From a virus (taxonomy: Duplodnaviria; Heunggongvirae; Uroviricota; Caudoviricetes): a DNA stretch of 42,304 nt. Both the position numbers and the translations under genes were made by a program. The notes beneath the pieces were generated by a model. It worked only from the letters and a program-made list of their open reading frames with translations, searched no databases and was not told the origin of the DNA. Location: the IMG/VR virus record IMGVR_UViG_2734482773_000007. One strand, 5' to 3'. Position 1 is the first letter of the stretch; each line of letters begins with the position of its first letter. This document shows, one piece after another, positions 470 through 40,481 of this stretch.

Positions 470-1873
470 TTGAGAATGCCGCGCACTGTAACACATAATC
501 CGGATAGCCCCAATAATGACGATGTTTTAGCCGCATCTGAAAAATGGGACGCCTGTAAACCCCCCTATACCAGCGCACACATGAAAATCTGTGTTGCTGC
601 CGCCAAAATCATCCTCGCTGCTTCCGGTGTGGCTCGCCGTTCCAAATACGAAAAAGAGAACTATCTCCGTATCGATTTCAGCAAAGCCGGTAAGGTTACA
701 TTTTACGCCGAGTTTCCAAAAAAGATGGGCCTCAAAGGTAAAAAGCTCGGCGAGTGGCCGGAGCTCGCTATCCAGCTGGCGCGCGAAAAAGCACTAGGTA
801 TGGCTGACGGTGGACTGCGGGCAGAGTCCGTACATGCAGCGCTGGAAATGTACCGGGATGACCTCAAAGCCAAAGTAGCCCGGCAGAAGCTGAGCCCGGA
901 CAGTTTCACAACCTACGGGGTGCGTATCGACCGGATTAAAGCAACGTTCGGCGAGCGCGAGGTGTTCAGCGACGTAACATACAGTCGGCTGGTGGAAGTG
1001 CTGGACGAGTGGATCGCCACTCGCTCGAACAATAACGCCCTGGAGTTGTTTGCCGAGCTCCGTCGGTTCTGGAAGTTCTGCGCACCTACTCTTTGCAACG
1101 GCCGCAATGTTGCCGCCAGTTTGCCAGATGATTATGTTTCCTCCCGCGTACAGAAACCCACCCCCACACGGCTTTTTACCGATATTGAATCAATCGCCCG
1201 ACTCTGGCTCAATGTTGCTGCCTGCACCTCTGTACACCAGAAGAATGCTGTTCGCTTCATGATCATCACTGGCGTTCGTCCGATTAATGTCCATAACCTG
1301 CGCTGGGACTACGTTCACGAGGAGGCTGGTGAAATTGTTTATCCGGAAGGGGTTATCGGCATGCGAGGGGCTATGAAAACACAAAAGGCTTTCCGGCTGC
1401 CGATAACGCCTGAGATCCGGCGGATTATCGACGAGCAGAAAGCCTGGCGTGATTCAGTTCCTGAGTGCAACAGGGATTATGTATTTTTGCAGCCACGTGA
1501 TCCAATGCAGCCATTTTCAAAACGATCACTGGATAAGCTGGTGAAAACATACAGCCCGGACGGGGCTGTAAAAGGAATAAAACATGATGGGACTGTTAAA
1601 GGGAAAGACGGTGCATTTAATACGATGTGCCGTAAATTCCTTAAGAGCAATGTTATTGCCTTGATGAAGGAAAGAGGCTATTCCCGCTCAGACCGAAGGG
1701 AAATCAGCCTCCTTTGCCTTCACCACTCCAGCAAGTCAGATGACCCGATGGCAGAACATTACGACTTTTCTGATGAGATTTTACAGGAAGAGATTGCGTT
1801 GAAGCGCGAAGCTTTCGAGGCTCACGAGCGGAGCATACTTGCGCAGGTGGCATTGCTACGGCGGCGAGGTTAA
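470..1873 (+). CDS. phage integrase, tyrosine recombinase family
   Basis: 467-aa ORF at the prophage edge next to a host gene and divergent from a Xis/AlpA-like gene; segment ITGVRPINVHNLRWDYV resembles box I (TGxR...L.W.D.D) of tyrosine recombinases. True start may be an internal Met. Confidence 0.7.
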   Translation: MRMPRTVTHNPDSPNNDDVLAASEKWDACKPPYTSAHMKICVAAAKIILAASGVARRSKYEKENYLRIDFSKAGKVTFYAEFPKKMGLKGKKLGEWPELAIQLAREKALGMADGGLRAESVHAALEMYRDDLKAKVARQKLSPDSFTTYGVRIDRIKATFGEREVFSDVTYSRLVEVLDEWIATRSNNNALELFAELRRFWKFCAPTLCNGRNVAASLPDDYVSSRVQKPTPTRLFTDIESIARLWLNVAACTSVHQKNAVRFMIITGVRPINVHNLRWDYVHEEAGEIVYPEGVIGMRGAMKTQKAFRLPITPEIRRIIDEQKAWRDSVPECNRDYVFLQPRDPMQPFSKRSLDKLVKTYSPDGAVKGIKHDGTVKGKDGAFNTMCRKFLKSNVIALMKERGYSRSDRREISLLCLHHSSKSDDPMAEHYDFSDEILQEEIALKREAFEAHERSILAQVALLRRRG

Positions 1874-2070
1874 TACCGGCTGCGACATTTTTGAATGAAA
1901 GCGTCGACATTTCGGCGCTCATAACGAACTACTTTTGCACTGAAACGAATTGGTGCCAGGATAGCCCGATGACGATGCTTAATATTCCACTCACATAGCG
2001 TTTTCTGTGTAATACCTAACTTTTGGCATACTTCATCCGGGGTGAGTAAATCGTCGGGTTTCTCGCTCAT
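1870..2070 (-). CDS. AlpA/excisionase-family small DNA-binding protein (putative Xis)
   Basis: 66-aa ORF, 4-bp overlap with the helicase gene, position next to int; LTPDEVCQKLGITQKTLCEW looks like a MerR/Xis-type helix-turn-helix. Confidence 0.6.
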   Translation of the reverse strand: MSEKPDDLLTPDEVCQKLGITQKTLCEWNIKHRHRAILAPIRFSAKVVRYERRNVDAFIQKCRSRY

Positions 2071-3461
2071 GCTATACCTCTCTTTTTCATGGCATCGAGC
2101 AGGATGTCCTGCACTGTTCGTTTTGAGTTGCGCCGCTCCATCACCATTTCGTCCATAGTGTCGGCAGCAATAATGTGGTGAATAAATACCGGACGATTGT
2201 GTCCGGCCTGTATCTGTCTGGTTGGGCCGATACGTTCAATAATTTGCTGATACTGCTCCAGGTCCCACCAGTGTGAGAAAAATACCAGTATGTTTCCGCC
2301 GTCCTGCATGTTCAGACCGTGGCCCGCGCTGGCTGGGTGTGCAAAGAGAACAGGAATCTTTCCGGAATTCCAGTCACGTAGTGTCTGTGGATCTTGGTCG
2401 AGGTGACGACCGCGAGGAAATGCTTTAAGCAAGCGTTCAAGATCGTGTTTCCAGTGATAAGCAACCAGCACAGGTGCGCCAGCTGCTTCGGTCAATATGC
2501 TGTCCAGCGCCTGTAGTTTGGTGTCATGCAGTTCTGACCAACTTCCGGCGTCGTCTGTGTATACTGCGCCACTGGCGATTTGCAGACACTTCAGTGTCTT
2601 TGCCGCGGCGTTCGGTGCTTCGATGCCTTCGCCATTCAGCTCGAGGAACATTTCCTTTTCCATTTCACGATACTGCTGACGGGCCTTCGGCGGCATATCC
2701 ACGCGGATTACGTTATGGATGGGGGCTTTGATATCGAACCAGTCGGCCGCATCCAGCGAGAGGGTCACATCGGCTAATGCTCGCTGTATTTCAGCCTGTG
2801 AGTGAGCAAACGGCTCCAGTTTGGTCCAGCTCTGCCCTGGAAACTGTATCGAGTTGAACCAGCGTGAGGTAAACGCGCCGTAAGTGCGTCCGAGACGTTG
2901 CCCCTGGTCCACAAACCACGCTTGTCCCCACAAATCTACCAGGCCGTTCGGTGCTGGCGTACCGGTGAGATTTATCCAGCGCCGGACATACTTATGCGCC
3001 ACTTTGCCCAGCGCCGCCGCGCGCTTACCACCACCTCGCAGCCGGAAGGATTTTAGCCGGGTGCTTTCATCCGGAATGACAGTACCGAACGGCCATCGTT
3101 CTCCCAATTCTTCAACCAGCCAGACAAGGTTATCGTAGTTGATGGTGAACACGCTTGCGTTGCTGTTCGCCAGCGCCGTAGAGCGCGCTTTGGCATTACC
3201 AACAATCGGCTGTACCTCGATATTGCGCAGATGCTTCCATTTCAGCGCTTCATCCGGCCATGTGCTTGCTACAACGCGTAGCGGCGCGAGGACCAGTGCG
3301 GGGCGTGTTTCTGCCCCTGCCATAAAGAGATCTTCCAGCGTAGTGAGCGTTGCCACGGTTTTACCCATCCCCATCCCTGCCCAGATGTTGCCGCGCAGGG
3401 TTTCGGTTTCGTGGTTGATAATGAGATCTTGGTAGGGGCGAGGTATATATTTTTGGGGCAT
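2067..3461 (-). CDS. SNF2-family DEAD/DEAH-box helicase
   Basis: 464 aa; Walker A GMGMGKT near N-terminus, DEST (DExx-like) motif, C-terminal helicase motifs; RBS GGAGCC 7 nt upstream of ATG. Confidence 0.85.
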   Translation of the reverse strand: MPQKYIPRPYQDLIINHETETLRGNIWAGMGMGKTVATLTTLEDLFMAGAETRPALVLAPLRVVASTWPDEALKWKHLRNIEVQPIVGNAKARSTALANSNASVFTINYDNLVWLVEELGERWPFGTVIPDESTRLKSFRLRGGGKRAAALGKVAHKYVRRWINLTGTPAPNGLVDLWGQAWFVDQGQRLGRTYGAFTSRWFNSIQFPGQSWTKLEPFAHSQAEIQRALADVTLSLDAADWFDIKAPIHNVIRVDMPPKARQQYREMEKEMFLELNGEGIEAPNAAAKTLKCLQIASGAVYTDDAGSWSELHDTKLQALDSILTEAAGAPVLVAYHWKHDLERLLKAFPRGRHLDQDPQTLRDWNSGKIPVLFAHPASAGHGLNMQDGGNILVFFSHWWDLEQYQQIIERIGPTRQIQAGHNRPVFIHHIIAADTMDEMVMERRNSKRTVQDILLDAMKKRGIA

Positions 3462-3477
3462 ATAATATGGCTCCTAA

Positions 3478-3511
3478 ACAACAAAAGGCCAATTTAGGCC
3501 TTTTGTTGTTT
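3478..3511. terminator. perfect 14-bp-arm palindrome (AACAACAAAAGGCC-N6-GGCCTTTTGTTGTT), possible bidirectional terminator
   Basis: Read directly; GGCC core stem followed by U-rich arm on both strands; sits immediately downstream of the AT-rich gene 3525..4442 and upstream of the helicase RBS. Confidence 0.45.
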
Positions 3512-3524
3512 TAAAAAATGTTAT

Positions 3525-4442
3525 TTATAATAGTGCTGTTACTATTGCATCTTTAAAAATATTTTCTTCTTCATTTATTAAAGGTGATGACAGATGAATA
3601 ATTACTTCTTTTCCTGTCAATACTATTTGCTCGACTTGAAATCCTGCGTTGTGTAGTCTTTGGCGTAACTTTTCTAGTGCTGATTTTGATATACTAAATC
3701 CTTCACTCCTTATAGTATAACTGGCAACTCCATTTTTAATAATATCTACAGAGTTGTCAATTTCCTGCTGCGAGTAATTTTTCGGTGAGTCGAAAAATCT
3801 GGATTTTGTCGTTGCTGTTGCCCTAAGAGATATCAATAATGATTTGATATCTTTAATCTCAGATGCCAGATACTCAGTTTCTGATACTTCTTTCTGGTCT
3901 AGTTGTGCAACTTTGAAAGTGCCAAAATGTTTGAGGAATGTTGTGTATTCAGGATCAGTTACTGACTTTAAATATGTTTCTTTTATCTTGCTCGCAAGTC
4001 TTTCTTTGAATAAATTGATTGATTGGTATCTTAAATCCGAAGGGTACTCTAAATGTTCAATTGATGAAATGTCAAAGCTATAAGGAGTGCGCTCGTCCTT
4101 AATAATTACGGTCGGTTTGTCAAATGCGAGACGCATTCCTAATTCAAACATTACATTAGCGTTTCGAGCACTTATATCGCAAACAACTATGGGGTTTTCA
4201 TAAAGATTTTGAACAATTCGTTTTTGTATTACTGCAACATCATCATCTGAACTTACCAAATTTGCCTTGAATCCGGCATCATTTGATGCTTCACAAATAA
4301 TGTCATGAACATTTCTCCAATGTCCAGTGGGATAACCTTCTATGTCCGCAATTGGCATAATAATGCCGCATATATGAGGTGGCATATTTTTGTTGTCTTT
4401 TACATCATCTTGGTTTATTTCTTTCGTTTGTTGCTTAGCCAT
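3525..4442 (-). CDS. AT-rich accessory protein: N-terminal TIR-like/ThsB-like domain plus ~170-aa C-terminal domain of unknown function
   Basis: 305 aa; codon usage visibly AT-rich versus neighbours; N-terminal pattern IIMPIADIEG ... NPIVVCDISARNANVMFELGMRLAFDKPTVII resembles the beta-strand / N-V-x-x-E-x-G core of TIR-like (ThsB/DUF1863-type) folds; RBS AGGAGT upstream. Confidence 0.5.
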   Translation of the reverse strand: MAKQQTKEINQDDVKDNKNMPPHICGIIMPIADIEGYPTGHWRNVHDIICEASNDAGFKANLVSSDDDVAVIQKRIVQNLYENPIVVCDISARNANVMFELGMRLAFDKPTVIIKDERTPYSFDISSIEHLEYPSDLRYQSINLFKERLASKIKETYLKSVTDPEYTTFLKHFGTFKVAQLDQKEVSETEYLASEIKDIKSLLISLRATATTKSRFFDSPKNYSQQEIDNSVDIIKNGVASYTIRSEGFSISKSALEKLRQRLHNAGFQVEQIVLTGKEVIIHLSSPLINEEENIFKDAIVTALL

Positions 4443-4457
4443 AGCTTACACAGACTC

Positions 4458-4742
4458 CTATTGTAATTTTTTGCCTAATATACATGAAAGCTCCTTACTA
4501 TCCAGTACTACCACGGTAAAGCCCAGTTTTCGCAGACGTTCATGCTCGCGCAACTGATCAGGTCGTGGTGGTTTGCCTGGTGCTTTGCATTCGACAAAAA
4601 CGATGCGACCGCCGGGTAGCAGAACAATGCGATCTGGTACCGAGCGGAGACCGGGAGATACGAACTTAAAGGCAACCCCGCCAGCCTTTTTTACTTCAGC
4701 GACGAGGTGCTTTTCGATTAGGTTTTCACGTTCATAGGCCAT
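4458..4742 (-). CDS. VRR-NUC domain nuclease
   Basis: 94 aa; PD-(D/E)xK-like core (VLLPGGRIVFVECKAPG); VRR-NUC commonly accompanies SNF2 helicases in phage replication modules. Confidence 0.75.
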   Translation of the reverse strand: MAYERENLIEKHLVAEVKKAGGVAFKFVSPGLRSVPDRIVLLPGGRIVFVECKAPGKPPRPDQLREHERLRKLGFTVVVLDSKELSCILGKKLQ

Positions 4743-4936
4743 TAGCTTTCGCCTTCCTGCTTTTTGCGTTTCTTCATGCAGATAGCGCAGTTCTCAGGAT
4801 GGTCATGCCATTCGTCAATCCTGATACCTGTGAACATCCATTTTCCGCATAGTGATATGGCTTCCCCCGAATTAAAGAAATGTGCTTTTTTCGACAGGGC
4901 GGGGAGCCCCCAACCTTTATTATCGATATTAGACAT
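4742..4936 (-). CDS. small hypothetical phage protein (Cys/His-containing)
   Basis: 64-aa ORF, 1-nt overlap with VRR-NUC start suggests translational coupling; contains HDHPENCAIC. Confidence 0.45.
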   Translation of the reverse strand: MSNIDNKGWGLPALSKKAHFFNSGEAISLCGKWMFTGIRIDEWHDHPENCAICMKKRKKQEGES

Positions 4937-5120
4937 CGTCCACCTCCTTACGCTTTTCGCGCATGTTCTGCATCAGACAAAAATCAAACCGACGTTCGCT
5001 TTGGCCCAGACCTGCATCGCCCGGTCGTACCCGCTGGACTGTTCAAGGCGCAAAGCCTCCCGCGCAGTCCGGTAATAAAGCGGACTGTCCCGGTATTTAA
5101 ATGACATAGGGTTTTTATTC

Positions 5121-5147
5121 CCAAATAAAAAACCCCGCGATGCAGGG
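5121..5147 (-). terminator. rho-independent terminator downstream of 5172..5933
   Basis: On the minus-strand RNA: CCCUGC-AUC-GCGGGG stem-loop (one G-U pair) followed by UUUUUUAUUU; 25 nt past the stop codon. Confidence 0.55.
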
Positions 5148-5171
5148 TTGTAATCAACAATAAGGGGGTAA

Positions 5172-5933
5172 TTACGAGGAAGCGTTAGCTATTTGAGCTT
5201 GTGTAAATTCGAAACCAGAATTTTGTAACCGTTGCACTAGACGAGGAACTGTTTCACGTACATGGTCGTTGAAATTCAGATACAAAATCCCGTTAGCATC
5301 AGAAGGCTGTTCTAGGTGCTGTTTCTGAAGGATTGCTACATTGCTGCGCCCTAAGGACGAAAGAAGCATACCCATCTCGAGTACAACGTTCTGTCTTGCG
5401 CGGGGTTGGATTTCTGCTTCACCGGCGCGCTTTGAGTATCCCATATCATCAGGTGTCAAAAGAACAATCCCGAAACGGGTAGCAGTTTGTCCTTGCCCAA
5501 TTTCACGTTCAAGCTCTTCAATAATGGTGAGTCCAGTCCCTCCCGTATTCTGCAAAATGAAATGGTCTGGTAATCCAAGTTTATGAAGGATTAGCTCAAG
5601 TTGCTCCTTTGCAGTATGGTCATGGCCGTGAACAATGAATATCTTTTTGGGGAGCTCAGATGGCTGTTCTACGGCTAGTGGTGTTGCCGTGGGTGGCGTT
5701 CCTAAATGGGTCATTATTGCAGTTTCAACATTGGGACGTTCTTGAGGGTTACCTTGAAACTGAATGGTCCGGGTGGTGTAAAGGTTAACAATTACGCCAT
5801 TCGTTAAACGATAGCAGTCACAAGTCTCACGCTGTTCGTGGGAAAAATTGGTGAACCCACACTCCCTCAAAAAGTCAGGAAAAGTTTCTCTCGGGTATGG
5901 ATAGGTGATCGGCATTTCAGTTAGTTCCTGCAT
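5172..5933 (-). CDS. two-domain accessory protein: N-terminal unknown domain plus C-terminal TIR-like domain (candidate anti-phage effector)
   Basis: 253 aa; C-terminal half KIFIVHGHDHTAKEQLELILHKLGL ... RFGIVLLTPDD ... ARQNVVLEMGMLLSSLGRSNVAIL matches what I recall as the TIR-like 'predicted nucleotide-binding' family signature (VFIVHG start, NV..E.G core); own terminator downstream. Confidence 0.55.
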   Translation of the reverse strand: MQELTEMPITYPYPRETFPDFLRECGFTNFSHEQRETCDCYRLTNGVIVNLYTTRTIQFQGNPQERPNVETAIMTHLGTPPTATPLAVEQPSELPKKIFIVHGHDHTAKEQLELILHKLGLPDHFILQNTGGTGLTIIEELEREIGQGQTATRFGIVLLTPDDMGYSKRAGEAEIQPRARQNVVLEMGMLLSSLGRSNVAILQKQHLEQPSDANGILYLNFNDHVRETVPRLVQRLQNSGFEFTQAQIANASS

Positions 5934-5997
5934 AAGTATTGTTCCTTTAATTTACTCGAATTCAGCATGTCGCCATAGCTCGATAAGGTGAGTTATA

Positions 5998-8061
5998 TCA
6001 ATCTTTTTTGTAGTGGTACGCCTCAAAACCGCCAGCGTTCAGTGGGATATCGGGCGCCCATTCGGGGTCAGTGGAGAGAAGCGCGGAAAGCGCTTTATCG
6101 TTGAAATCTTCTGTGTCAGGTGCTTCGGTGATCACCTCGTCGTGTACCGTCAGCACAATGCTGTAACCGGCATCTTCGATAAGCGGTATGTTTCCGGCCA
6201 GAACGTCGCGGGCGGCCGCCTGGGTGACGTTCTCCACCAGCTTTCCGCCGTAGGTTTTGAGTCGTTGCCATTTACGCGAATAAGAGTTAACACCCATGTA
6301 GGTGATATTCCCTTGTTCGATAACCGGAGACGGGTAGCATACAGCGCGTCCGGATGGTAGCTGTATGCGCAGCCACGCGCCATCGCGGCGGATTTTAAGA
6401 TAACCGCAATACAATGTTTTTTGCGGTGTGGCGATTGCAGTGCGGACGGTGCGCTCCAGTTCGTACCAGAAATCGCAGGTCGCCGGGTGCGCCCTGCGCC
6501 AGAGACGTTTAAGTGAGTCGCAGGCGATAAATACCCGTTCAGAAAGCCCGTAGGTTGACTTGCGTTTAACCGATTCGTCGTACCAGCTTTTCGCCTCGCG
6601 GATAACATCGCGGGGAATGTTTGGCAGTGCGGCGTTCGCCAGCTCGTCGAGATCGAGACCGTAAACCAGCGCAAAAGTGATGAAAGCCGATACACCACCA
6701 CCATAACCCAGACCGAGCTCCATGACTTTACCGATCTGACGCATGTGTTTATCAACATCATTTGGTGCAATATCGAAAGCTTTTGCATACGCCAGTTTAT
6801 ATAAGTCCGGACCCGTTCCGGCGTCGTACTCTCTGAATGCATTCAGTTTCCATTCTTCTCCCGCCAGCCATGCCAGCATACGGCCTTCAATGTTCGACAA
6901 GTCACTTACCACCAGCTTTTTGCCTGTTGGCGCGATAATGCAGCCACGTAACGCTGAACTGGTTAGTTCCATGATATTGTCAAACAGCAGGTCTGCACAT
7001 CCGGCTTTCAGTGCTTCGATGCCTTCGTCTATTTGTTCCTGTTTTAGTGAAGGGCGGGGAAGGTTCTGGGGCTGGAATAGCCGTCCGGCCCAACGACCGG
7101 TACGTGACGCCCCGCAGAACTGTAGCGTACCGCGTAAGCGCCCGTCGTGGCTTACGCCTTTCATCAGTGCCTTGTATTTACTGGTGCTGGTAGTACTGGC
7201 CTGCAGGCGGATAGCCAGCAGTTCTTTCACGGCAGATGGTAAATCGGGGTCGGCAATACGACGTTCCAGAGTACTGCGTTGCATGTCTGGTAGCTCCACA
7301 CCGTAGGATTCAACAATGTGCTTAATCAACGCGTCTCGTTGTGTGGCTGCCTGCACTTCGCCATCAGTCATTTCCTGTGTACGCTTTGCCAGGCGCTTTT
7401 GTTCCTGGTCTACCGCATCGATCGCAGCGCGTGCGAGTTCCACGTCCATGCAGACGCCCCGGTCGTTGATCTGCTGATCACGATGCCAGAGCGCCAGTTC
7501 TGTCCCCTGATAATTCCACTTCGGCAGACGTTTATAGACTTCGCGCATTGCCTCGATATCCAGTCCGGCGTAAGCAACAAAGCGCCGCCATTCTTCCGGG
7601 TGGGTTTTGCTGGTGGCCCGGCGCAGTTTGCTGTTTTTCGGGCGTGGCTTACAGAACAGCTGGATCAGCGCTTTACCTTCTTTGTCCTTCGCTTTGTCTT
7701 GCGGGACGCCTAGTACTTCGCAGAGTTCCCCCAGAGACCCCGGGAGACCGTGCGCCAGCGCCTGCACCATTGTGTCGCGCCAACGTTCGATTGGCGGTGC
7801 CAGGCGCGGCATTGCATAACGCAGGACGGTGCGGTCGAAGTGAGAGTTATGGAAATAAAGCAGGGTTTCAGGGTCTGCGATTGCTTCGTATAAGCCGTGT
7901 GGAATACCACCACCGGCAGTGATATCCCACACGTTTACGGGTCCGTCGTTGATAGCCCATGCGAACAGCATCACTTCAACGCCTTCGGCATACGCATGGG
8001 TACCGTTCGTAATAGGGATTTCGCAATAGGTTTCTAGGTCACCCCATAGTATATTGGACAT
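5998..8061 (-). CDS. family-A DNA polymerase (PolA-like, with N-terminal 3'-5' exonuclease-like region)
   Basis: 687 aa; overall resemblance to phage PolA proteins; sits within helicase/nuclease/primase replication module. Confidence 0.75.
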
Positions 8062-8117
8062 AAAATAACCTTGTGTGATATATGGTTATGTAGGTGTAAA
8101 TAAACAAGGAGACGGCG

Positions 8118-8387
8118 GTGTTTAGCTTTGGTATCGGAATACTTTCATTGATAGGTATTATTGCTTTCCCCATTCTTTATATTTTAGGGAGAATAGTTCG
8201 GGCTGGTGGCGCATGGCTCGAACGTGAAGAAGGTCCTAAGGATCGTGTTCTTCCCAAAATTATAATTTTTGCGCTTATTGGGTTCTTTCTTGGGTGTTTG
8301 GCTCAGCCTGTATGGGACAGCATTTCGGTATGTAGAGACTATGGCAATCCAATAGGGAAATGTCTTTTTAAATTCAATGAATTTTAA
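8118..8387 (+). CDS. small membrane protein on the opposite strand (moron-like)
   Basis: 89 aa, GTG start with AAGGAG RBS 6 nt upstream; two hydrophobic segments (FGIGILSLIGIIAFPILYIL and IIIFALIGFFLGCLA); AT-rich; orientation opposite to the surrounding operon. Confidence 0.5.
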   Translation: MFSFGIGILSLIGIIAFPILYILGRIVRAGGAWLEREEGPKDRVLPKIIIFALIGFFLGCLAQPVWDSISVCRDYGNPIGKCLFKFNEF

Positions 8388-8403
8388 TTTTTAGTATTGC
8401 GGT

Positions 8404-8444: not shown

Positions 8445-8454
8445 ATAAGAAATA

Positions 8455-9693: not shown

Positions 9694-9708
9694 GGGGATT
9701 TCCTTAAA

Positions 9709-32217: not shown

Positions 32218-32804
32218 TGGATATTCTCTCTACACTTTTTCATCAGCAGAGCAGAAAAATAGGAATGATTGTTCCCAGTGTTGTTATTTCAGAGAAGCAT
32301 ACAGATATGCTTGAAATAACAGAGCATCCGGTAGAGGTCGGGGCTGCTGTCGCTGATCATGCCTATAAAAAACCGTCAGAAGTGGTGATGGAGGTTGGTT
32401 TCGCCGGTGGCGGCGCATTGCTGGATTTTGCCAGTAACCTGACGGCTACCAGCCTGCTCGGCCTGAGTCCTCAGCAGACGTATCAGGAGCTACTGGATCT
32501 GCAGGAAAGCCGTATCCCCTTCGATGTGGTAACCGGTAAACGGCTGTACAGCAACATGTTGATCCGGGCGCTGGAAGTGACGACGGACAAGACAACCGAA
32601 AACGTCCTGTCCGCCGTCCTCACCCTGAGGGAGGTCCTTATCTCCCGGACACAGCAGATCACCGTCGCTGATAAAACCAACATGAAGGAAGGGGCCAGCA
32701 CGTCGGCGGTACAGAACAGCGGCAACAAAACCACAAAGCCTCCAGATACTTCACTGCTGAAAAGCATCACGGGTAACGTGGTGTCATTACTGGGAGGCGG
32801 ATAA
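32217..32804 (+). CDS. tail/baseplate-associated protein
   Basis: 195-aa ORF, start overlaps tape-measure stop. Confidence 0.45.
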   Translation: MDILSTLFHQQSRKIGMIVPSVVISEKHTDMLEITEHPVEVGAAVADHAYKKPSEVVMEVGFAGGGALLDFASNLTATSLLGLSPQQTYQELLDLQESRIPFDVVTGKRLYSNMLIRALEVTTDKTTENVLSAVLTLREVLISRTQQITVADKTNMKEGASTSAVQNSGNKTTKPPDTSLLKSITGNVVSLLGGG

Positions 32805-33106
32805 TGACAATTCAGGAAATTCCGCTGACAGCGGACAACCAGCAGTTCAGCATCGTCCTGGGTGGTGTCACCTGGCGGATTAGCATCATATGGCGCGATC
32901 CTTACTGGATTATGGACCTGCAGAACGACAGAGGGGAGCCGGTAATCTCCGGTATACCTCTCGTCACTGGCGCTGACCTGCTGGCGCAGTACGCCTGTAT
33001 GGGACTTGGTTTTAAGCTGTTGGTGGTCTGCGATGACAACACACAGGATTATCCCACGAAAACTGACCTGGGCGGGCGCAGTCATTTACTGGTATCAACG
33101 GAGTAA
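32804..33106 (+). CDS. small tail protein
   Basis: 100-aa ORF, start overlaps upstream stop. Confidence 0.45.
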   Translation: MTIQEIPLTADNQQFSIVLGGVTWRISIIWRDPYWIMDLQNDRGEPVISGIPLVTGADLLAQYACMGLGFKLLVVCDDNTQDYPTKTDLGGRSHLLVSTE

Positions 33107-33108
33107 GC

Positions 33109-34176
33109 ATGTCACAGAACTGGATGAGACATTTCGAGCTGCAGCTTGTGGACGGGAACGGTCAGGGAATTGAGCTAAGTGATTTCAAAGTCACCTTTAC
33201 GATCGACTGGTTCAACATCAGCAGCGCGTCCCGGGTAGGGACTATCAAAATTTATAACCTCTCGGCAGATACTGTGAACCGAATTACCGGGCAGGAGTTT
33301 TCGAAAGTGCGTCTGATTGCGGGTTACGACGGTATCGCGCCGGAGGTGTCGGCAAGCGATGTCGGGACCGTGCGGGAGGTTGATGCGGCGGACGTGGGCC
33401 AGAGTGATGGCCGCAACTACGGACTGATTTTCAGCGGTGAAATTCGCTACTCGGTCACAGGAAAAGACAGCCCGGTTGATTCCTACGTCCTGATTCAGGC
33501 AGCCGATACAGATCTGGCTTTTGCCACCAGTATAACCTCACAGACGCTGGCTGCCGGTTACACGGTCGCTGATGTGAACCGTGCGCTGATGAAAGACTTC
33601 GAAGCCAAAGGTGCGACCGAAGGCCTGACGCCTGAAATGCCTGCTACTGTATTCCCCCGGGGGCGGGTACTCTTTGGCATGACGCGGCATCTTATGGATA
33701 ATGTAGCCGGGCAATGTGGCGCAACATGGCAATTCGTGGATGGTCAACGCCAGATGGTGGCGAATAATGAATATGTTCACGAAGCGATTGTGCTCAACAG
33801 CGCTACCGGGCTTATTGGCATGCCGCAGCAGACTATCGGTAACGGCGTAAACGTCCGCGCGCTTATTAATCCGAACATCCGGGTTAACGGGCTCATTCAA
33901 CTGGATCAGGCTTCAGTGTATCGTACCGCGTTGTCGAACAACGATATCGCGATGGCCGGTGGGCAGATCACCGACCAGAACACGGACGGAAATATTACGC
34001 TAAGCGGCACCACATCGCAGCCTGCCAGCATCGCAACGGATGGCGTTTATATTGTGCGTGGGATTATGTACACTGGCGACACAAGGGGGCAGGCGTGGTA
34101 CATGGATATGATGTGTGAAGCACGTGGCGCGGCTGATCTACTTTCGTCCTCAGCGCAGCAAAGGATTTATTCATGA
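33109..34176 (+). CDS. baseplate hub-like protein (Mu gp44 / late control D-like position)
   Basis: 355 aa; position after tape measure in Mu-like order. Confidence 0.45.
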   Translation: MSQNWMRHFELQLVDGNGQGIELSDFKVTFTIDWFNISSASRVGTIKIYNLSADTVNRITGQEFSKVRLIAGYDGIAPEVSASDVGTVREVDAADVGQSDGRNYGLIFSGEIRYSVTGKDSPVDSYVLIQAADTDLAFATSITSQTLAAGYTVADVNRALMKDFEAKGATEGLTPEMPATVFPRGRVLFGMTRHLMDNVAGQCGATWQFVDGQRQMVANNEYVHEAIVLNSATGLIGMPQQTIGNGVNVRALINPNIRVNGLIQLDQASVYRTALSNNDIAMAGGQITDQNTDGNITLSGTTSQPASIATDGVYIVRGIMYTGDTRGQAWYMDMMCEARGAADLLSSSAQQRIYS

Positions 34177-34520
34177 AGCGTATGAAGTTAGTTTTGACAA
34201 TTTCGTTATTATTTTCTTGTTCAGCAGCTTTTGCTGATTTGCAATGCGGCGGATATCTACTTCATGCAGCTGATAACGGTTGGACAAAAATCAACGGTGA
34301 GCAGGTAACATCACAGAAGATTACGTTTCTTGGTAAGAAAGATGACTGGGACAACGTTAAAACGAACATGGGCCTGATGCCTTCTCGCGATGGCAACAAT
34401 TACGGCTTTGAGTTTGTGAAGCGTAACGGAAAAGCTTTCCTGAACGTCCAGCTTCTGCAGAACAGCATGGATGCGCCTAAAATCATCGGATCATTCCCTT
34501 GTAAAAAGGCGTTACGCTAA
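34173..34520 (+). CDS. small secreted protein (cleavable signal peptide), moron-like
   Basis: 115 aa; N-terminus MKRMKLVLTISLLFSCSAAFA then DLQ fits Sec signal with AFA cleavage site; AT-rich; inserted between baseplate hub and spike genes. Confidence 0.55.
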   Translation: MKRMKLVLTISLLFSCSAAFADLQCGGYLLHAADNGWTKINGEQVTSQKITFLGKKDDWDNVKTNMGLMPSRDGNNYGFEFVKRNGKAFLNVQLLQNSMDAPKIIGSFPCKKALR

Positions 34521-34547
34521 AGTTTGATGTCAATCTTCCGAGATGAG

Positions 34548-34582
34548 CGCTTTAAGGTTGACGAGATATTGTTCAAAGTTCA
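34548..34582 (+). promoter_or_regulatory. candidate promoter for the 34616..35771 cassette (TTGACG-N17-CACAAT)
   Basis: Read from sequence; weak -10. Confidence 0.25.
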
Positions 34583-34615
34583 CAATCACAATCCCTTTAG
34601 TAAGAGAAATAATCC

Positions 34616-35389
34616 ATGGCGGCAGGCATCCCATTAGAAAAAGCGCAAAAATATATTGAACAATTCAATGCGCTTCTATTGGATAGGGAAAGTTTAGATC
34701 CCTTCACTGAAAAGAAAATTCGAGAGGAACTTTCTGTCTCTCCAACGCCTGCTACCAACATTGCACTATCTTATCTGGATGCAATAACCGGAAAGATTGA
34801 AAGCGCGTTACGTTATCTCAGGATAAGCCTAGAAGTAAACGATGTAACGTTGGCAATGCACTATCATCACATTTTAATTAATACATTTAGCTATAATGAA
34901 CTCAAGGATGTCTATGTCCCGCTGGCAAAGAAGTATCGGACAAAACTCTTTAGTCACAACGCATACAGTTGGGCGTACCGTTGCGGCGAGCGTGAACAGT
35001 TAAAATTTTATATGGAAGAGCACATTAAGCTTCTTTCTGAATCAGAAGGCAGGAGTAATGCTATGAAGCACAAAGAAGAACTCCTTGCAGAAATGGATAA
35101 TTTCTATAGCGCCACACAGTGCTCGAAGGAACAGTTCCAGACCTTAGCATCCATAATCTGGGGCTTGCTAAGTGAATACAAGGCTACGACAGGTTTCGTT
35201 CAGCTTAGTGGAAGCGGTTGCTATGTTGTTGATATTAAAAATCTTGAGCCTAAAACTATTGCCAAAATGAACTTCGACTTGGCTGATAGAGTCTGCGCTG
35301 AATCTAAACTGGATGATTGTTCCCTGTTAGCTAGATTTACCTCTCCGCGTCAGTTGCATACGGGGGTGAGCTACCATGTCGGTAACTAG
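34616..35389 (+). CDS. hypothetical helical protein, first gene of AT-rich two-gene cassette
   Basis: 257 aa, AT-rich codons, no signal peptide, no catalytic motif recognised; overlaps next gene by 14 bp. Confidence 0.55.
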   Translation: MAAGIPLEKAQKYIEQFNALLLDRESLDPFTEKKIREELSVSPTPATNIALSYLDAITGKIESALRYLRISLEVNDVTLAMHYHHILINTFSYNELKDVYVPLAKKYRTKLFSHNAYSWAYRCGEREQLKFYMEEHIKLLSESEGRSNAMKHKEELLAEMDNFYSATQCSKEQFQTLASIIWGLLSEYKATTGFVQLSGSGCYVVDIKNLEPKTIAKMNFDLADRVCAESKLDDCSLLARFTSPRQLHTGVSYHVGN

Positions 35390-35771
35390 CAATCAGATTC
35401 TCGATACCGCTCGATTATGTCTGTCTGAAAATATTGAGAGTGGATTTCGAAGCGCTATCTCAAGGGCGTATTACAGTATGTTACATGAGTCTATTAGCTC
35501 ACTTACTGCCATACCGCATTTTACCCATGAGCATCACAAAAATACTGTGGGTTATATGTCAACGCCCTCAGAGTGCAAATCAGAGCCATACCCGACAAAT
35601 ACACTGAAATCCCTAGCTTTCGTACTTCGCCAGTGGCGGGATGCTAGAAATGAAGCTGACTATGATCTGACGAATGTGACTGTTTCGAAAGAGATGGGAC
35701 AGGATGCAATCGAGGCTGCTGAACTCTATTTTGAGCGCTGGGAACAGCTAAAGTCTGCTAGAGTTTCATGA
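35376..35771 (+). CDS. small helical protein with HEPN-like features, second gene of cassette
   Basis: 131 aa; SRAYYSMLHES contains an R-x6-H spacing and AYY..LH helix start reminiscent of HEPN domains; tentative. Confidence 0.5.
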   Translation: MSVTSNQILDTARLCLSENIESGFRSAISRAYYSMLHESISSLTAIPHFTHEHHKNTVGYMSTPSECKSEPYPTNTLKSLAFVLRQWRDARNEADYDLTNVTVSKEMGQDAIEAAELYFERWEQLKSARVS

Positions 35772-35788
35772 ATAAAATTAACGTTATC

Positions 35789-35813
35789 AAACCCGCTTCG
35801 GCGGGTTTTTTGC
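35789..35813 (+). terminator. rho-independent terminator (AAACCCGC-TTCG-GCGGGTTT + T-tract)
   Basis: Perfect 8-bp stem, UUCG tetraloop, U-run; 18 nt after cassette stop. Confidence 0.8.
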
Positions 35814-35830
35814 TTTCTGGAGCCTACTAA

Positions 35831-36583
35831 ATGGCAGTATCTGACCAGACCCGCAGCGGCGACCTTGCCGAAACATTCAAATCTGAACGGGAAACAACAA
35901 AGAACCAGATCCGTGTCGCCTTGCCTGGCATTATTCAGTCATTCGATCCTGATGCGGTGACGGCAGTTGTGCAGCCTGCTATCCGTTCGGTTGAAAAGGA
36001 TAATGACGGCAACCGCATTACCAAAAATTACCCATTGCTGGTGGATGTGCCAGTGGTATTCCCGCGCGGCGGAGGATGTACGCTAACATTCCCAGTTAAA
36101 GCCGGTGATGAATGTTTGGTGATTTTTGCCGATCGTTGTATTGATTTCTGGTGGCAGAGTGGCGGGATACAGGAGTCGGTCGATGACAGAATGCATGATT
36201 TATCGGATGCGTTTTGTATTGTCGGTCCCCAGTCGCAGGCAAGGAAGATTAGCGGTATTAATACCAGTGCCACACAGTTGCGTAGTGATGACGGCAGCAC
36301 CTATTTTGAGCTTAATCCTGATACCAGGAAAATTAAAATTGTCGCTCCAGGTGGTCTTGATGTGGTTGTCCCTCTGGCTGATTTTTCTGAGAAAGTAACC
36401 ATTCATGGCCTGTTAACCTGGATGGGTGGCATGGTGGGGTCTGTTGTTTCTGGTGTGGCTTCAAAAATCACTGGTGCTGTTGAGTTCTTGGGGAGCGTTA
36501 AGGCTAACGGCAAGCCAATCGATGATACGCACACTCATGGCGGTGTTCAGCGCGGTGGAAGCAATACCGATGGGGTAAACTGA
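35831..36583 (+). CDS. baseplate spike / assembly protein V-like
   Basis: 250 aa; gpV/Mu gp45-like position; Gly-rich C-terminus. Confidence 0.6.
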   Translation: MAVSDQTRSGDLAETFKSERETTKNQIRVALPGIIQSFDPDAVTAVVQPAIRSVEKDNDGNRITKNYPLLVDVPVVFPRGGGCTLTFPVKAGDECLVIFADRCIDFWWQSGGIQESVDDRMHDLSDAFCIVGPQSQARKISGINTSATQLRSDDGSTYFELNPDTRKIKIVAPGGLDVVVPLADFSEKVTIHGLLTWMGGMVGSVVSGVASKITGAVEFLGSVKANGKPIDDTHTHGGVQRGGSNTDGVN

Positions 36584-36936
36584 TGCGATACAGACGTGAA
36601 GACGCCGATGGCGATTACACCTTTGGCAGCGGTGATGACACCTGGCTGATTAACTCACCGGAGGCCGTGGCGCAGGCGGTAAAAACGCGATTCGAATTGT
36701 GGTATGGGCAATGGTTTCTCGACACCACCGAAGGGACTCCGTGGATCCAGTCCGTGCTCGGTAAGCAGAAGCCGGAAACCTACAACCTGGCGATCCGTAA
36801 GCGCATTCTGGAAACGCAGGGCGTTAAATCAATCCTCTCTTTCAATACGACGGTGGATACCACGACCCGACGTGTCATGTTTTCCGCTGAAATCGACACT
36901 CTTTATGGAATAACGACTGTTACATCGGAGGCGTAA
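36583..36936 (+). CDS. baseplate wedge protein (GPW/gp25-like)
   Basis: 117 aa, start overlaps upstream stop; position between V-like and J-like genes. Confidence 0.55.
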   Translation: MRYRREDADGDYTFGSGDDTWLINSPEAVAQAVKTRFELWYGQWFLDTTEGTPWIQSVLGKQKPETYNLAIRKRILETQGVKSILSFNTTVDTTTRRVMFSAEIDTLYGITTVTSEA

Positions 36937-38135
36937 TGGCTCTGAACCTTGATTCTCTCGGTTTATCTGCAAAGGTAACCGCGGAGGGGATCAGTGCGCC
37001 TGATTATCAGACGATACTCAGCACCCTGATTAGCTATTTTCAGCAGATTTATGGTAGTGATGCCTACCTCGAACCGGACAGCAAAGACGGCCAGATGGTG
37101 GCTCTGATGGCGCTGGCGATTCATGATGCCAATAATACGGCGATAACTGTCTACAACTGTTTTTCACCGGCAACCGGCTATGGGGCTGCACTGACCAGTA
37201 ACGTGAAAATAAATGGTATTTCACGTAAAGGCGCGACGAACTCTACGGTTGATTTGCTTCTTACAGGAACTGCCGGAACAACCATCATTAATGGCAGCGT
37301 GAAAGACAGTAATAATGTGATATGGCGTTTGCCTGCTTCAGTGGTGGTAGGCGTGGATGGTACAGTGATGGTGACCGCAACATGTTCCGTCAGTGGTGCA
37401 GTGGCGGCGCTGGCTGGAACTATCACTGAAATTAATACGCCAACCCGTGGCTGGGTTTCGGTAACCAATCCTGCTGCAGCTACTGTGGGCACTCCGGCAG
37501 AAACTGACGCGGAGTTACGTATCCGCCAGTCGCAGAGTGTTGCGTTGCCATCAATAACCCCATTTGAAGCACTGGATGGTGCTGTTTCTAATGTTACCGG
37601 TGTAACCCGCCACAAACTCTATGAAAACGATACTGGTTCGGAGGACGGTAACGGGTTACCGCCACACTCTGTTGCTGTAATTGTGGATGGCGGTGATGTA
37701 ACGGATATTGCTCAGGCTATCAGAGGGAATAAAGGCCAGGGGACAGCCACTCACGGTACAACATCCGTTACGGTTCCGGATAAATACGGCAATCCCCATG
37801 TAATCAAATTCTCGCGTTCCAGTGATGTGCCTGTTTATGCCCGGATTAAATTAAAAGTTTTTACGGGTTATACCTCACAGATAGGGCAGCAGATCCAGCA
37901 GGCTATTTCCGACTATATCAATAGTCTGACGATCGGTGATTCGGTCCTTTTAAGTCGCATTTACTCACCGGCGAATCTTGGCGTGGTGAGTGGCGGGAAT
38001 GCACGCTATTACGATATTCAGGAACTGACGATTGGTAAATCCCCGGGGGCTTTGTCGTCATCAAACATTGATATTAGATATAACGAATCTGCGTCCTGTA
38101 CCCCGAAAAATATCGTTATAACGGTGGAGTCATGA
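36936..38135 (+). CDS. baseplate J-like protein
   Basis: 399 aa; position and size. Confidence 0.6.
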   Translation: MALNLDSLGLSAKVTAEGISAPDYQTILSTLISYFQQIYGSDAYLEPDSKDGQMVALMALAIHDANNTAITVYNCFSPATGYGAALTSNVKINGISRKGATNSTVDLLLTGTAGTTIINGSVKDSNNVIWRLPASVVVGVDGTVMVTATCSVSGAVAALAGTITEINTPTRGWVSVTNPAAATVGTPAETDAELRIRQSQSVALPSITPFEALDGAVSNVTGVTRHKLYENDTGSEDGNGLPPHSVAVIVDGGDVTDIAQAIRGNKGQGTATHGTTSVTVPDKYGNPHVIKFSRSSDVPVYARIKLKVFTGYTSQIGQQIQQAISDYINSLTIGDSVLLSRIYSPANLGVVSGGNARYYDIQELTIGKSPGALSSSNIDIRYNESASCTPKNIVITVES

Positions 38136-38812
38136 GCAAATACACCGAACTAATCACAAACTACCACGCCACCAAACCTAAATTTCTTGCACATGTTGAT
38201 CTGATGACCCGGCCGCTTATTTATGTTGCGGCTGCCACCAGCGGGCTGATTACTGCATTTGATATTGACTCTGCGGTTGGTGTGCAACTTGACATTCTGG
38301 GATTGTGGATCGGACGTAGCCGTGTTGTCAGCCAGCTTATCTCAGGTATCTATTTCAGCTGGGATACCGACGGGCTTGGATATGATCAGGGTGTATGGCA
38401 GGGACCATACGATCCTGATTCCGGATACATGTACCTCAGCGATGAAATTTATCGTGTCATCCTTAAAGCGAAGATTGCGATTAATAACTGGGACGGACGG
38501 AATGATTCGCTTCCAGCAATTCTTGACGCGGCGACAGCAGGATCCGGGCTGCGAATGCAGATTGTCGATAACCAGGACATGACGATATCGGTCTGGGTCT
38601 TTCCTGATACTGATATTTCAGATGTATCGCGTGAGTTAATTGCTGCAATTAAACAGGGATATCTCACAGTAAAAGCCGCCGGGGTGTGGGCGGGTGACAT
38701 TGAAACACCTTCGGTGGAAACCCCATCGGAAGGCTCAAAATTTTTTGGTTTTGATATGGATAACGAATTTATCAGTGGTTTTGATGTAGGGGCATGGGGA
38801 GTATTACTCTGA
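38132..38812 (+). CDS. baseplate/tail protein I-like
   Basis: 226 aa between J-like gene and tail fibre. Confidence 0.5.
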
Positions 38813-39909
38813 TGGCAAAAAATGACTTTAAAACATTCGCAACGGGTAAAAATGCCAATGTTATGTCGCAGGAGGAATGGGAAGCGTTGCCTGCGCTTTT
38901 ATCCGGATTTACAGCAGGGAAAGCATCCAGTGCGCAAGTCAATAAGGTTATTCGGCAGGCCAGCTTTATTGCATCTGCAATAGCACAATATACAGCAAAT
39001 GAAAGTGGACTGGATGTACAGGACGATGGCGATCAGGCCGGCTTTATCGCAAAAATGTCGTCTGCATTAGATAAGAACTATCAGAGAATTAATGCCATAC
39101 TTACCGCACTTGCTAATCTTTCAGCATCCGAAAACAAATTACCGTATTTTACCAATCAAGATACCGCTAATTTGGCTGACCTGACACAGGTTGGGCGAGA
39201 TATTTTGGCAAAAAGCTCTGTTGCTGATGTCCTTAAATATCTTGGTTTGGAAAATAATTCGACCTTTCCTGTAGGTGCCCCGATCCCGTGGCCATCAGAT
39301 ACAGTTCCATCTGGTTATGCTCTGATGCAGGGACAGACTTTTGACAAGTCTGCATACCCGAAACTTGCAGCCGCTTATCCGTCAGGCGTGATCCCTGATA
39401 TGCGTGGCTGGACAATCAAAGGTAAGCCTGCAAGTGGACGTGATGTTCTTAGCCAGGAACAGGACGGCATTAAATCGCACACCCACAGCGCCAGTGCTTC
39501 AAATACAGATTTAGGGACAAAAAACACATCATCGTTTGATTATGGAACTAAATCTACGAATAACACTGGTGCGCATACCCATAGCGTTAGCGGAACAGCA
39601 GCTTCAGCAGGTGCACATACGCATCCGATATCTCAGGGGGATAATGCTAACGTTAGCTCCGGTAGAGTAGCTTCGTCGAACTCTGCTCAAACTCACTTAG
39701 GTGCAACGAATTCTGCTGGCGCGCATACCCACTCAGTATCAGGTACTGCAGCAAGTGCTGGGGCGCATACACATACTGTCGGTATTGGTGCTCATACGCA
39801 CTCCGTTGCGATTGGCTCACATGGACACACCATCACCGTTAACGCTGCTGGTAACGCGGAAAACACCGTCAAAAACATCGCATTTAACTATATTGTGAGG
39901 CTTGCATAA
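38812..39909 (+). CDS. tail fibre protein with internal His/Thr-rich repeats
   Basis: Start at ATG overlapping upstream stop (MAKNDFKTF); repeated [19 protein letters not shown] units; conserved C-terminal FNYIVRLA. Confidence 0.7.
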
Positions 39910-40481
39910 TGGCATTCAGAATGAGTGAACAATCACGAACCATCAAAATTTATAATCTGCTGGCCGGAACTAATGAATTTATTGGTGAGGGTGACGCATA
40001 TATTCCACCTCATACAGGTCTGCCAGCAAACAGTACCGATATTGCACCGCCAGATATTCCTGCAGGCTTTGTGGCTGTTTTCAACAGTGATGAGGCATCG
40101 TGGCATCTCGTTGAAGACCATCGGGGTAAAACCGTCTATGACGTGGCTTCCGGCGACGCGTTATTTATTTCTGAACTTGGCCCATTACCGGAAAATGTCA
40201 CCTGGTTGTCGCCGGATGGGGAGTTTCAGAAGTGGAACGGCACAGCTTGGGTGAAAGATGCAGAAGCAGAAAAACTCTTCCGGATCCGGGAGGCGGAAGA
40301 GAAAAAGACAAGATTAATCCAGGAAGCGACTGATAACATAACAATTCTGCAGGATGCCGTTAATTTTGAAATGGCAACTGATGAGGAAATCTCGATGCTA
40401 TCTTCCTGGAAAAAATACCGGGTATTAGTGAGTCGGATTGATATAAATACAGCCCCGGATATCGTATGGCCAGAGCTGTGA
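39909..40481 (+). CDS. tail fibre assembly protein (Tfa)
   Basis: 190 aa; typical Tfa features incl. C-terminal ...IVWPEL; directly after fibre gene. Confidence 0.7.

Follow-up and report, generated by a model that had tools for sequence, protein, structure and literature searches.

A prophage of the vB_EcoM-611R5-like lineage in Escherichia coli, probably a two-arm chimera with accessory cassettes in fixed slots

The DNA stretch described here, IMG/VR record IMGVR_UViG_2734482773_000007 of a virus of the class Caudoviricetes, is 42,304 nucleotides long and is referred to in its entirety as the window. The 42.3-kb window is a single prophage located between the host genes yfhL and yfhH. We consider it very probable that it represents a complete and apparently intact temperate phage of the vB_EcoM-611R5-like lineage of Escherichia coli, composed as a two-arm chimera with cassettes in about seven fixed slots. 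The genes for a helicase, the VRR-NUC nuclease, a family-A DNA polymerase (PolA), SSB, DUF2800, cI/cro and primase-VapE appear to form one collinear early arm of the type carried by phages YeP4, BPP-1 and APSE. The late arm appears to combine a PF06530 Q gene, a lysis cassette of lambda/SfV type, the virion module of phage SEN34, and a lambda-like fibre tip with Tfa. A preliminary description had presented this DNA as a mosaic of lambdoid regulation and lysis, a PolA replication module and a Mu-like tail; the mosaicism is real, and the modules and their partners were misidentified.

The two arms and the join between them

Similarity to YeP4, APSE-1 and BPP-1 runs through most of the early arm. 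The SNF2/DEAD helicase (2067-3461, minus strand, Pfam SNF2-rel_dom), which closes the leftward early replication operon at its distal (3') end, is 66-74% identical in amino acid sequence to its counterparts in these three phages, and VRR-NUC (4458-4742, minus strand), whose Pfam match is weak and below the curated cut-off, is 52-71% identical. PolA (5998-8061, minus strand, Pfam DNA_pol_A) shares 73% identity with Yersinia YeP4-6, 67% with Bordetella BPP-1 and 65% with Hamiltonella APSE. The conserved core of the arm (9145-12094, minus strand, Pfam) is made up of an Enc34-type SSB (DUF2815), a DUF2800 PD-(D/E)XK nuclease, orf300 and orf60. SSB and DUF2800 are 46-66% identical to the proteins of YeP4, APSE-1 and BPP-1, the match of orf300 to YeP4 and APSE-1 is limited to about 58 residues, and orf60 has no match in either of the latter two. 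On the plus strand, the D5-like primase/VapE replication protein of 730 amino acids (13656-15859; Pfam VapE-like, 2e-60; phrog_1156, DNA primase), whose gene ends in a terminator, is 70-74% identical to those of YeP4 and APSE-1 and 27% identical to that of BPP-1. Pfam and PHROGs confirm the replication genes reported earlier, namely SNF2 helicase, VRR-NUC, family-A polymerase and primase/VapE. The label PrimPol was overstated, as PHROGs assigns the N-terminus of the VapE protein to DNA primase and neither a PrimPol Pfam family nor a PDB match was found for it. APSE has been described as a mosaic with 'Bordetella-Bcep-Xylella-YeP4-like' early modules (PMC8579659, modules 1 and 2), and the early arm of the window is the same module.

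The genes of the immunity switch and of antitermination are present as the preliminary description had it. The cI product, a repressor with S24 peptidase and helix-turn-helix (HTH) domains (12696-13370, minus strand, Pfam), faces an HTH_3 Cro (13422-13652, plus strand, Pfam) across operator-like ACAA-N-TTGT repeats (13365-13425). CI is 22-28% identical to the CI proteins of YeP4, APSE-1 and BPP-1, and Cro has no match in these phages. The antiterminator Q (16130-16552, plus strand, PF06530, Pfam 7e-42) is 41-46% identical to Q of Shiga toxin (Stx) phages and of APSE-1.

The distribution of these genes was followed in IMG/VR through 80 loci around VapE relatives, in 64 of which the late arm could be determined. 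The early arm is joined to a YeP4-type virion module in 41 of these contigs and to a SEN34-type module in 23. Q is present in 23 of 23 SEN34-type and in 0 of 41 YeP4-type contigs, and lambda-type R occurs in SEN34-type contigs only. In YeP4-type podovirus contigs identity to the window reaches 92% for PolA and 95% for VapE, and cI/cro are 86-93% identical in many of them. Because cI/cro are kept in YeP4-type contigs and Q is confined to SEN34-type contigs, CI/Cro appear to be native to the PolA arm, with Q, lysis and virion genes forming the other arm. The earlier view of CI/Cro and the PolA set as a junction of two ancestries does not hold, since both lie in one arm common to YeP4, BPP-1 and APSE-1. 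The restriction of Q to SEN34-type contigs likewise places the predicted deep join, free of cargo, at VapE|Q (15848-16130). The junction between the arms (15860-16129) has a fixed length, 283-367 bp in 31 loci, and adjoins a strong terminator with a 12-bp stem at the end of VapE (15830-15859).

On the late side of this join, the S-R-Rz/Rz1 cassette reported earlier is present, with holin S (PF05106, 17353-17712), endolysin R (17716-18192), Rz (18176-18700) and, embedded in Rz, the Rz1 lipoprotein with an LLSGC lipobox (18438-18599), all on the plus strand. A lysis patch of SfV/lambda type (17398-18292), 88-90% identical in nucleotide sequence to SfV, SfII and SfIV, ends inside S and Rz. The small terminase (Terminase_2, 18762-19334, plus strand) is unlike the TerS of SEN34 except at the C-terminus, and nucleotide homology to SEN34 starts at 19296, 40 bp ahead of TerL. 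The SEN34-type virion module was assigned by Pfam and similarity to SEN34. Its first part (19337-34520, plus strand) contains head genes for TerL, portal, a Mu-F-like protein, DUF2213, cement, major capsid protein and neck, and tail genes for a DUF3383 sheath, a KPP10-type tube, TAC, tape measure, a Dit-like protein, a Pam3-type plug, the hub and orf115. The second part (35831-38812, plus strand) contains the spike (PF18352 and Apex), wedge/sheath initiator, Baseplate_J and DUF2612 genes. It is followed by the tail fibre and Tfa (38794-40481, plus strand); the N-terminus of the fibre is SEN34-like, its distal part and Tfa resemble lambda stf/tfa, and family homology in the fibre breaks at 38972.

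From TerL to DUF2612, and again in orf88, the late arm is collinear with SEN34 at about 81% nucleotide and 54-96% amino acid identity. This homology at about 81% is confined to 19296-39110 and 42063-42292, the early half being unrelated. By the criterion of the International Committee on Taxonomy of Viruses, the genomes of one genus have a nucleotide identity of about 70% or more along their entire length. Because less than half of the window is homologous to SEN34, the window would be placed outside the genus Brunovirus, to which SEN34 belongs. SEN34 itself is a myovirus by electron microscopy, has a lambdoid early region and forms plaques (PMC5261728).

Two further features of the virion module were observed. 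The gene orf115 (34173-34520) lies between the hub and spike genes, and its product, which has a SEN34 counterpart with 54% identity, bears a signal- or lipoprotein-like sequence, MKRMKLVLTISLLFSCSAAFA, at its N-terminus. The product may be an exported protein of a moron, for example one for superinfection exclusion, and not part of the virion. Additionally, in two IMG/VR contigs (L070 and L083) TerL is 86-94% identical to the window while portal and head genes are merely 42-58% identical, which suggests more recombination inside the virion module just after TerL.

Lineage, insertion site and ends

The deposited phages vB_EcoM-611R5, 606R2, 689R2 and 683R1 (GenBank ON470579-ON470593) are 96-98% identical to the window over 65-74% of its length, with the same gene order. 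Seven relatives were fetched whole, vB_EcoM-611R5 and six E. coli genomes. The backbone order is the same in all seven, the yfhL|yfhH site is the same in the six genomes, every backbone block is covered at 90% identity or more by at least six of the seven, and three immunity types occur among them. A search of 5,426 complete E. coli genomes gave 39 in which the first half of the window is covered to 80% or more and 74 in which this holds for the second half. These matches point to an established E. coli lineage of vB_EcoM-611R5-like prophages, on which a literature search found no paper. An identical accessory set was found in none of the relatives; coverage reaches 90% in the first half and 98% in the second, and these two maxima come from different genomes. 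The window is a new cassette combination in a known, well-populated prophage lineage. A single lineage matching along the full length in both order and cargo, which the preliminary description had set against a mosaic origin, was found as regards gene order (611R5/606R2 and the six E. coli genomes) and not as regards cargo.

Other records resemble the window in part. The prophage of relative Z1322HEC0009 (L009 1301-3916; L004) is decaying, with IS66 between the excisionase-like gene and the helicase and with frameshifts in PolA, DUF2800, VapE, hub and Baseplate_J, and it has kept cargo cassettes identical to those of the window. Parts of the second half (query 21001-42304) are matched at 95-99% nucleotide identity by 45 phage records, including many Stx1a-, Stx2- and Stx2c-converting phages; our guess is that the fibre/Tfa region or the right end lies behind these matches.

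The left chromosomal flank is the intact host gene yfhL (1-261, minus strand), annotated as a 4Fe-4S ferredoxin by the Prokaryotic Genome Annotation Pipeline (PGAP) in relatives 97-100% identical there. yfhL is a published site of prophage integration (PMC3603311), and Stx2b prophages have been found at it (PMC12029490). In six of the six fetched E. coli genomes yfhH lies directly beyond orf88 and is followed by pgpC and tadA; the window ends before the right attachment site, attR, and the yfhH side is seen in the relatives only. The attL region (262-475), with repeated CAACACA(A/T) motifs, was placed by comparing the left and right junctions of one relative (L006). No long direct repeat was found between these two junctions, only repeats of 8-9 nucleotides, and ATTACCGT is tentatively proposed as a candidate attachment core. 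The window contains no tRNA that could mark an integration site. A circularly permuted phage contig was ruled out, as the window ends have no repeat in common and the left end is host yfhL.

The integration module begins with a tyrosine integrase of 465 amino acids (476-1873, plus strand, ATG at 476; Pfam Phage_integrase, phrog_1). It matches one of 50,697 phage records, Serratia phage vB_SspS_OS31, at 76% identity; among E. coli genomes, by contrast, this integrase is frequent at yfhL. The adjoining HTH_17 protein (1870-2070, minus strand), which scores 25.8 bits against a curated Pfam cut-off of 27 and is labeled 'helix-turn-helix transcriptional regulator' by PGAP, would serve as excisionase. 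Of the limits 470 and 40481 given earlier, the first marks the integrase open reading frame (ORF) and the second the end of Tfa, beyond which the prophage runs on to at least 42304. This remainder holds an acetyltransferase, a pin remnant, orf215 and orf88. The last two occupy 41332-42304 on the minus strand; orf215 has 33% guanine plus cytosine (GC), and orf88 (42038-42304), a conserved gene and the last one of the phage, has a SEN34 counterpart with 81% identity.

Accessory slots and their contents

Comparison with the seven relatives defines seven variable slots, whose cargo has a mean GC content of 40.8%, against 51.4% in the backbone. The relation of slots to module joins was examined over 42 backbone gene boundaries, with modules defined by ourselves; 9 boundaries were scored as ancestry changes and 7 carry cargo. 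Three cargo slots (orf60|cI, Q|S and Tfa|orf88) fall at ancestry changes where 1.5 are expected (hypergeometric P=0.155), and the other four (helicase|VRR-NUC, VRR-NUC|PolA, PolA|SSB and hub|spike) lie inside modules. With this overlap, and with no cargo at the main join, the proposed coincidence of module boundaries with accessory insertions is not borne out. The intramodular slots look like old hotspots, because YeP4, APSE-1 and BPP-1 hold unrelated genes at the same positions.

The companion proposal, that cargo sits at recombination junctions, fails for the four intramodular slots and holds locally at the right end, because there a pin remnant adjoins the acetyltransferase cassette. This slot (slot G, 38973-42022) extends from the fibre tip through Tfa, the acetyltransferase and the pin remnant to orf215. 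The pin remnant (41122-41250, plus strand) consists of the last 42 codons (3') of a Pin/Gin-type invertase gene and aligns with the C-terminus of pinE of relatives Rb-50 and Ecol_542, and family homology restarts exactly at 41122. It is a true scar of illegitimate recombination, and the fibre-tip/Tfa/acetyltransferase cassette has taken the place of the invertible fibre segment of other members. The hexapeptide acetyltransferase (40492-41037, minus strand, 36% GC; Pfam Hexapep, PGAP 'serine acetyltransferase') is possibly a lysogenic-conversion gene.

The cassettes of the window recur at 99-100% identity in differing subsets of the relatives. The cassettes of slots A and B are found in 611R5 and Rb-50, that of slot C in E62 and Ecol_542, that of slot F in Z1322HEC0009 and Ecol_542, and that of slot G in DETEC-P1056, E62 and Z1322HEC0009. 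Such differing combinations of near-identical cassettes would be best explained by recombination in the conserved flanks. The slots of relatives also contain SIR2, cytosine and S-adenosylmethionine methyltransferases, DUF4406, DUF4282, a macro-domain protein, and an invertible fibre segment with Pin. In IMG/VR, slot sizes range over 218-1825 bp in B (63 loci), 87-1889 bp in C (67 loci) and 550-2048 bp in D, with 11-14 size classes each, and VapE|Q and the control boundaries SSB|DUF2800, DUF2800|orf300, TerL|portal and R|Rz are essentially fixed in size. Promoter-like and terminator sites flank the cargo; the sites used were individual strong promoter or terminator matches beside gene ends.

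Three slots interrupt the replication genes. Slot A (helicase|VRR-NUC, 3448-4494) holds orf305 (3525-4442, minus strand, 34% GC), which is weakly TIR-like (PADLOC TIR effector, E=1e-6), is found in two of the seven relatives and is replaced by other genes in the rest. Slot B (VRR-NUC|PolA, 4742-5996) holds a TIR protein (5172-5933, minus strand) of CAP12/Pycsar type (Pfam CAP12-PCTIR_TIR, 3e-31; PADLOC PDC-S35, 7e-109), with a terminator directly downstream of its gene (5131-5149), and orf64 (within 4742-5933, minus strand), a frameshifted remnant of the ANR family; the ANR gene is frameshifted also in relatives identical to the window there. A literature search on PDC-S35 found no paper. The TIR protein and orf305 are encoded two genes apart, both within the replication operon, and TIR homologues of 71-92% identity occur in YeP4-type podovirus contigs as well. 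Slot C (PolA|SSB, 8062-9144) holds orf89 (plus strand, two hydrophobic segments) and Nmad5 (minus strand, a putative nucleotide-modification domain, Pfam Nmad5 1e-56), together at 8118-9123. The same slot of Rb-50 (L007 8829-10310) holds a SIR2 protein of 493 amino acids.

Slot D (orf60|cI, about 12100-12700) contains orf73. Slot E (Q|S, 16553-17352) contains orf113, followed by a hairpin with a T-run at about 16983-17012 and by a tR'-like terminator (17244-17265) before S (the whole 16584-17265, plus strand); the orf113 region is present at 90% nucleotide identity or more in four of the seven relatives. No NCBIfam matches were obtained for ten unassigned proteins, and a PDB sequence search with orf257 and orf305 gave nothing convincing.

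Slot F (hub/orf115|spike, 34508-35798) contains a two-gene cassette, orf257 (34616-35389) and the HEPN-like orf131 (35376-35771), both on the plus strand. With promoter-like sites at 34558-34613 and a terminator at 35789-35808 it forms a unit of 34558-35808, its GC content is 42-44% against 51% in the backbone, and it is present at 100% identity in two of the seven relatives and absent from the other five. By promoter-like sites, terminator, GC content and presence or absence, the pair has the appearance of a textbook moron in the sense of Juhala and Hendrix. Homologues of orf257, which has no Pfam domain, form about 40 clusters, all from Enterobacterales and Aeromonas; the partner of 131 amino acids follows orf257 in every context examined, and the pair has the orientation of a late operon. 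Outside the window the pair, which moves as a unit, is inserted in three unrelated tail operons: in the same hub|spike slot of a Rahnella phage of SEN34 type (L016/L017), between chaperone and tape measure of a Klebsiella michiganensis siphovirus (L018/L019), and between tape measure and DNA_circ_N of an Aeromonas bestiarum phage with a true Mu-type tail (L020). The orf131 protein is weakly HEPN-like (PDB 9xbd, E=0.002; Pfam HEPN, E=0.0066 for a relative) and has an invariant RDARNEADY motif; PGAP leaves it uncalled in relatives with 100% identical DNA. A role in toxin-antitoxin function or abortive infection is a guess.

We tentatively propose that the fixed slots, namely helicase|VRR-NUC, VRR-NUC|PolA and PolA|SSB of the early arm and hub|spike of the late arm, are long-lived exchange platforms for defence or counter-defence genes, perhaps including uncharacterised systems, with orf257-orf131 as the clearest candidate. 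Under this proposal the early-arm slots would be maintained when the virion type changes between podovirus and myovirus, and in hosts of different genera.

Alternative explanations and comparison with known phages

Family knowledge suggests how the two arms would work together. In lysogeny CI would repress the divergent early promoters. Upon induction the leftward operon would supply nuclease, SSB, polymerase, VRR-NUC and helicase, and the rightward operon Cro and the primase-helicase, giving a phage-encoded replisome drawn from both early operons. Q would modify RNA polymerase so that transcription passes the terminators at 17244-17265 and 35789-35808 and enters the lysis and virion genes, and cargo would probably be expressed from its own promoters in the lysogen. 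Cassettes would reassort by homologous recombination in the conserved flanks, with occasional illegitimate events of the kind suggested by the pin scar.

An origin as a one-off mosaic, in which lambda-like regulation and lysis were combined with a foreign PolA module and a Mu-like tail and accessory genes mark the junctions, accounts for the three cargo slots at ancestry changes and for the right-end cassette with its recombination scar, and R, Tfa and Stf are genuinely lambda-like. It does not account for CI/Cro and PolA lying in one collinear arm in YeP4, BPP-1, APSE-1 and the podovirus-type contigs, for a main join without cargo, or for an overlap of slots and joins at chance level with four of seven slots intramodular. 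The tail does not fit it either. What was called Mu-like is correct for gene order, which runs from sheath, tube, chaperone, tape measure, Dit-like protein, plug, hub, spike, wedge, Baseplate_J and DUF2612 to fibre and Tfa, and incorrect for families and sequence. Gene order from sheath to Tfa is generic to simple contractile tails and not specific to Mu. Of the ten Pfam families of Mu from sheath to gp48 (Phage_sheath_1, Tail_tube, Gp41_Mu, TMP_3, DNA_circ_N, GpP-like, Mu_Gp45, GP46, Baseplate_J and Mu_Gp48), Baseplate_J alone is found in the window, whose tail families are DUF3383, KPP10_Orf10, TAC_15, Dit_like, Pam3_gp18, E217_GP41, PF18352 and DUF2612; the sole tblastn match to Mu is a stretch of 52 residues of Tfa. 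The tail is of SEN34/E217/Pam3/KPP10 type and not of Mu type. As the architecture recurs in dozens of genomes, it is no one-off, and we regard this explanation as improbable and already largely refuted.

The strongly different ancestry of the two halves and the GC steps along the window could also arise from two adjacent or nested prophages or from a chimeric assembly mimicking a hybrid. The window, however, has a single integrase, one set of host flanks and one copy per essential function, six complete genomes that were assembled independently have the same layout, as do deposited phage records, and about 42 kb is normal for the virion type (SEN34 40.7 kb, 611R5 42.7 kb); the chance of such an artefact is minute. 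A decaying, non-inducible remnant, kept by the host for accessory (defence or conversion) genes, is suggested by the frameshifts and insertion sequences of Z1322HEC0009, by the ANR gene that is frameshifted in relatives identical to the window there, and by the pin remnant. Decay is an unlikely reading of this copy, given that every backbone ORF in the window is full length relative to SEN34 and 611R5, that relatives have been deposited under virion-style names (vB_EcoM) and that SEN34 forms plaques.

Several points weigh against the preferred reading of an intact two-arm chimera with fixed slots. The integrase has no relationship to its counterparts in YeP4, APSE-1, BPP-1 and SEN34, and so the integration module appears to be a third, independent piece. 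Overall promoter and terminator counts are not above those of shuffled sequence, and the regulatory mechanism is built on homology and consensus scans. The inducibility of this copy and its myovirus particles are read from genes only, recombination in flanking homology is deduced from the pattern of reassortment, and base-by-base comparison covered seven full family members.

Under this reading of two arms and fixed slots, the element would be classified as a 611R5-like temperate myovirus with a YeP4/BPP-1/APSE early arm and a SEN34 late arm, and not as a lambda/Mu hybrid. It offers a clean, well-populated case of whole-arm exchange, with early genes about 90% identical in two virion morphotypes, and its accessory genes would occupy conserved hotspots within operons and not module joins. 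The slots should be useful for mining E. coli prophage defence systems, as they hold TIR/PDC-S35, SIR2, methyltransferases, Nmad5 and the HEPN-like pair. The mosaic fits the standard modular theory of phage evolution and leaves the current understanding of mosaicism unchanged; only two leads are worth following, the hotspots conserved within operons and the mobile HEPN-like pair.

Among known phages, lambda has the same general plan: int/xis, early-left operon, cI, cro, early-right operon, Q, S-R-Rz/Rz1 and late genes. Lambdoid features of the window are the divergent cI/cro switch with an S24 repressor, Q upstream of a tR'-like terminator and S-R-Rz/Rz1, and patches of high identity with lambda-group phages (R, Tfa and the SfV/SfII/SfIV patch). 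Where O/P-type or P22 18/12-type genes would follow cro, the window has primase-VapE, and PolA, SSB and helicase sit in the leftward operon. The closeness to lambda asserted in the preliminary description applies to R (88%), Tfa (84%) and Stf (68% over 306 amino acids) and not to CI (28%) or S (26%). The alignment with lambda Rz spans 33 residues only, and lambda Q, Cro and Rz1 have no detectable similarity in the window. No homologue of lambda O/P or Red was found in the window, and none of N at a convincing E-value. The Q of lambda is of a different family, and its tail is siphovirus-type whereas that of the window is contractile. With Mu, the window shares a Mu-F-like domain in the head morphogenesis protein and Baseplate_J, and an invertible fibre cassette resembling the G segment, together with a Pin/Gin invertase, is found in some relatives. 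No window protein matches Mu A or B transposase by tblastn; the window has a tyrosine integrase instead.

YeP4-6, BPP-1 and APSE have the same early order of helicase, slot, VRR-NUC, slot, PolA, slot, SSB, DUF2800, cI, cro and primase-VapE, and the replication genes of YeP4, BPP-1 and APSE-1 are 46-74% identical in amino acid sequence to those of the window. Their virions are podovirus-type (YeP4-type, BPP-1-type, and P22-like in APSE) and their integrases differ from that of the window. In APSE a PF06530-type Q (44%) is followed by a cargo site ahead of the holin, as in the window, whereas YeP4 has no Q at the corresponding position. SEN34 (Brunovirus; 'temperate 26' lambda cluster) resembles the window in its cargo position between hub and spike and in an O-acetyltransferase after the fibre genes, at the position of the acetyltransferase of the window. 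Its early region, unlike that of the window, is genuinely lambdoid (Red exo/bet/gam, O/P, Nin and a different Q), its integrase and TerS also differ from those of the window, and its R and Rz are not of lambda type.

The closest known system is 611R5. It differs from the window in its immunity region, in its VapE allele and in the genes of the PolA|SSB, hub|spike and fibre/right-end slots, where an invertible fibre segment and invertase stand in place of the acetyltransferase and pin remnant. The backbone order from helicase to orf88 is the same in both at 96-98% nucleotide identity, the 611R5 record ends in yfhH, pgpC and tadA, and 611R5 carries the same orf305 and TIR cargo.

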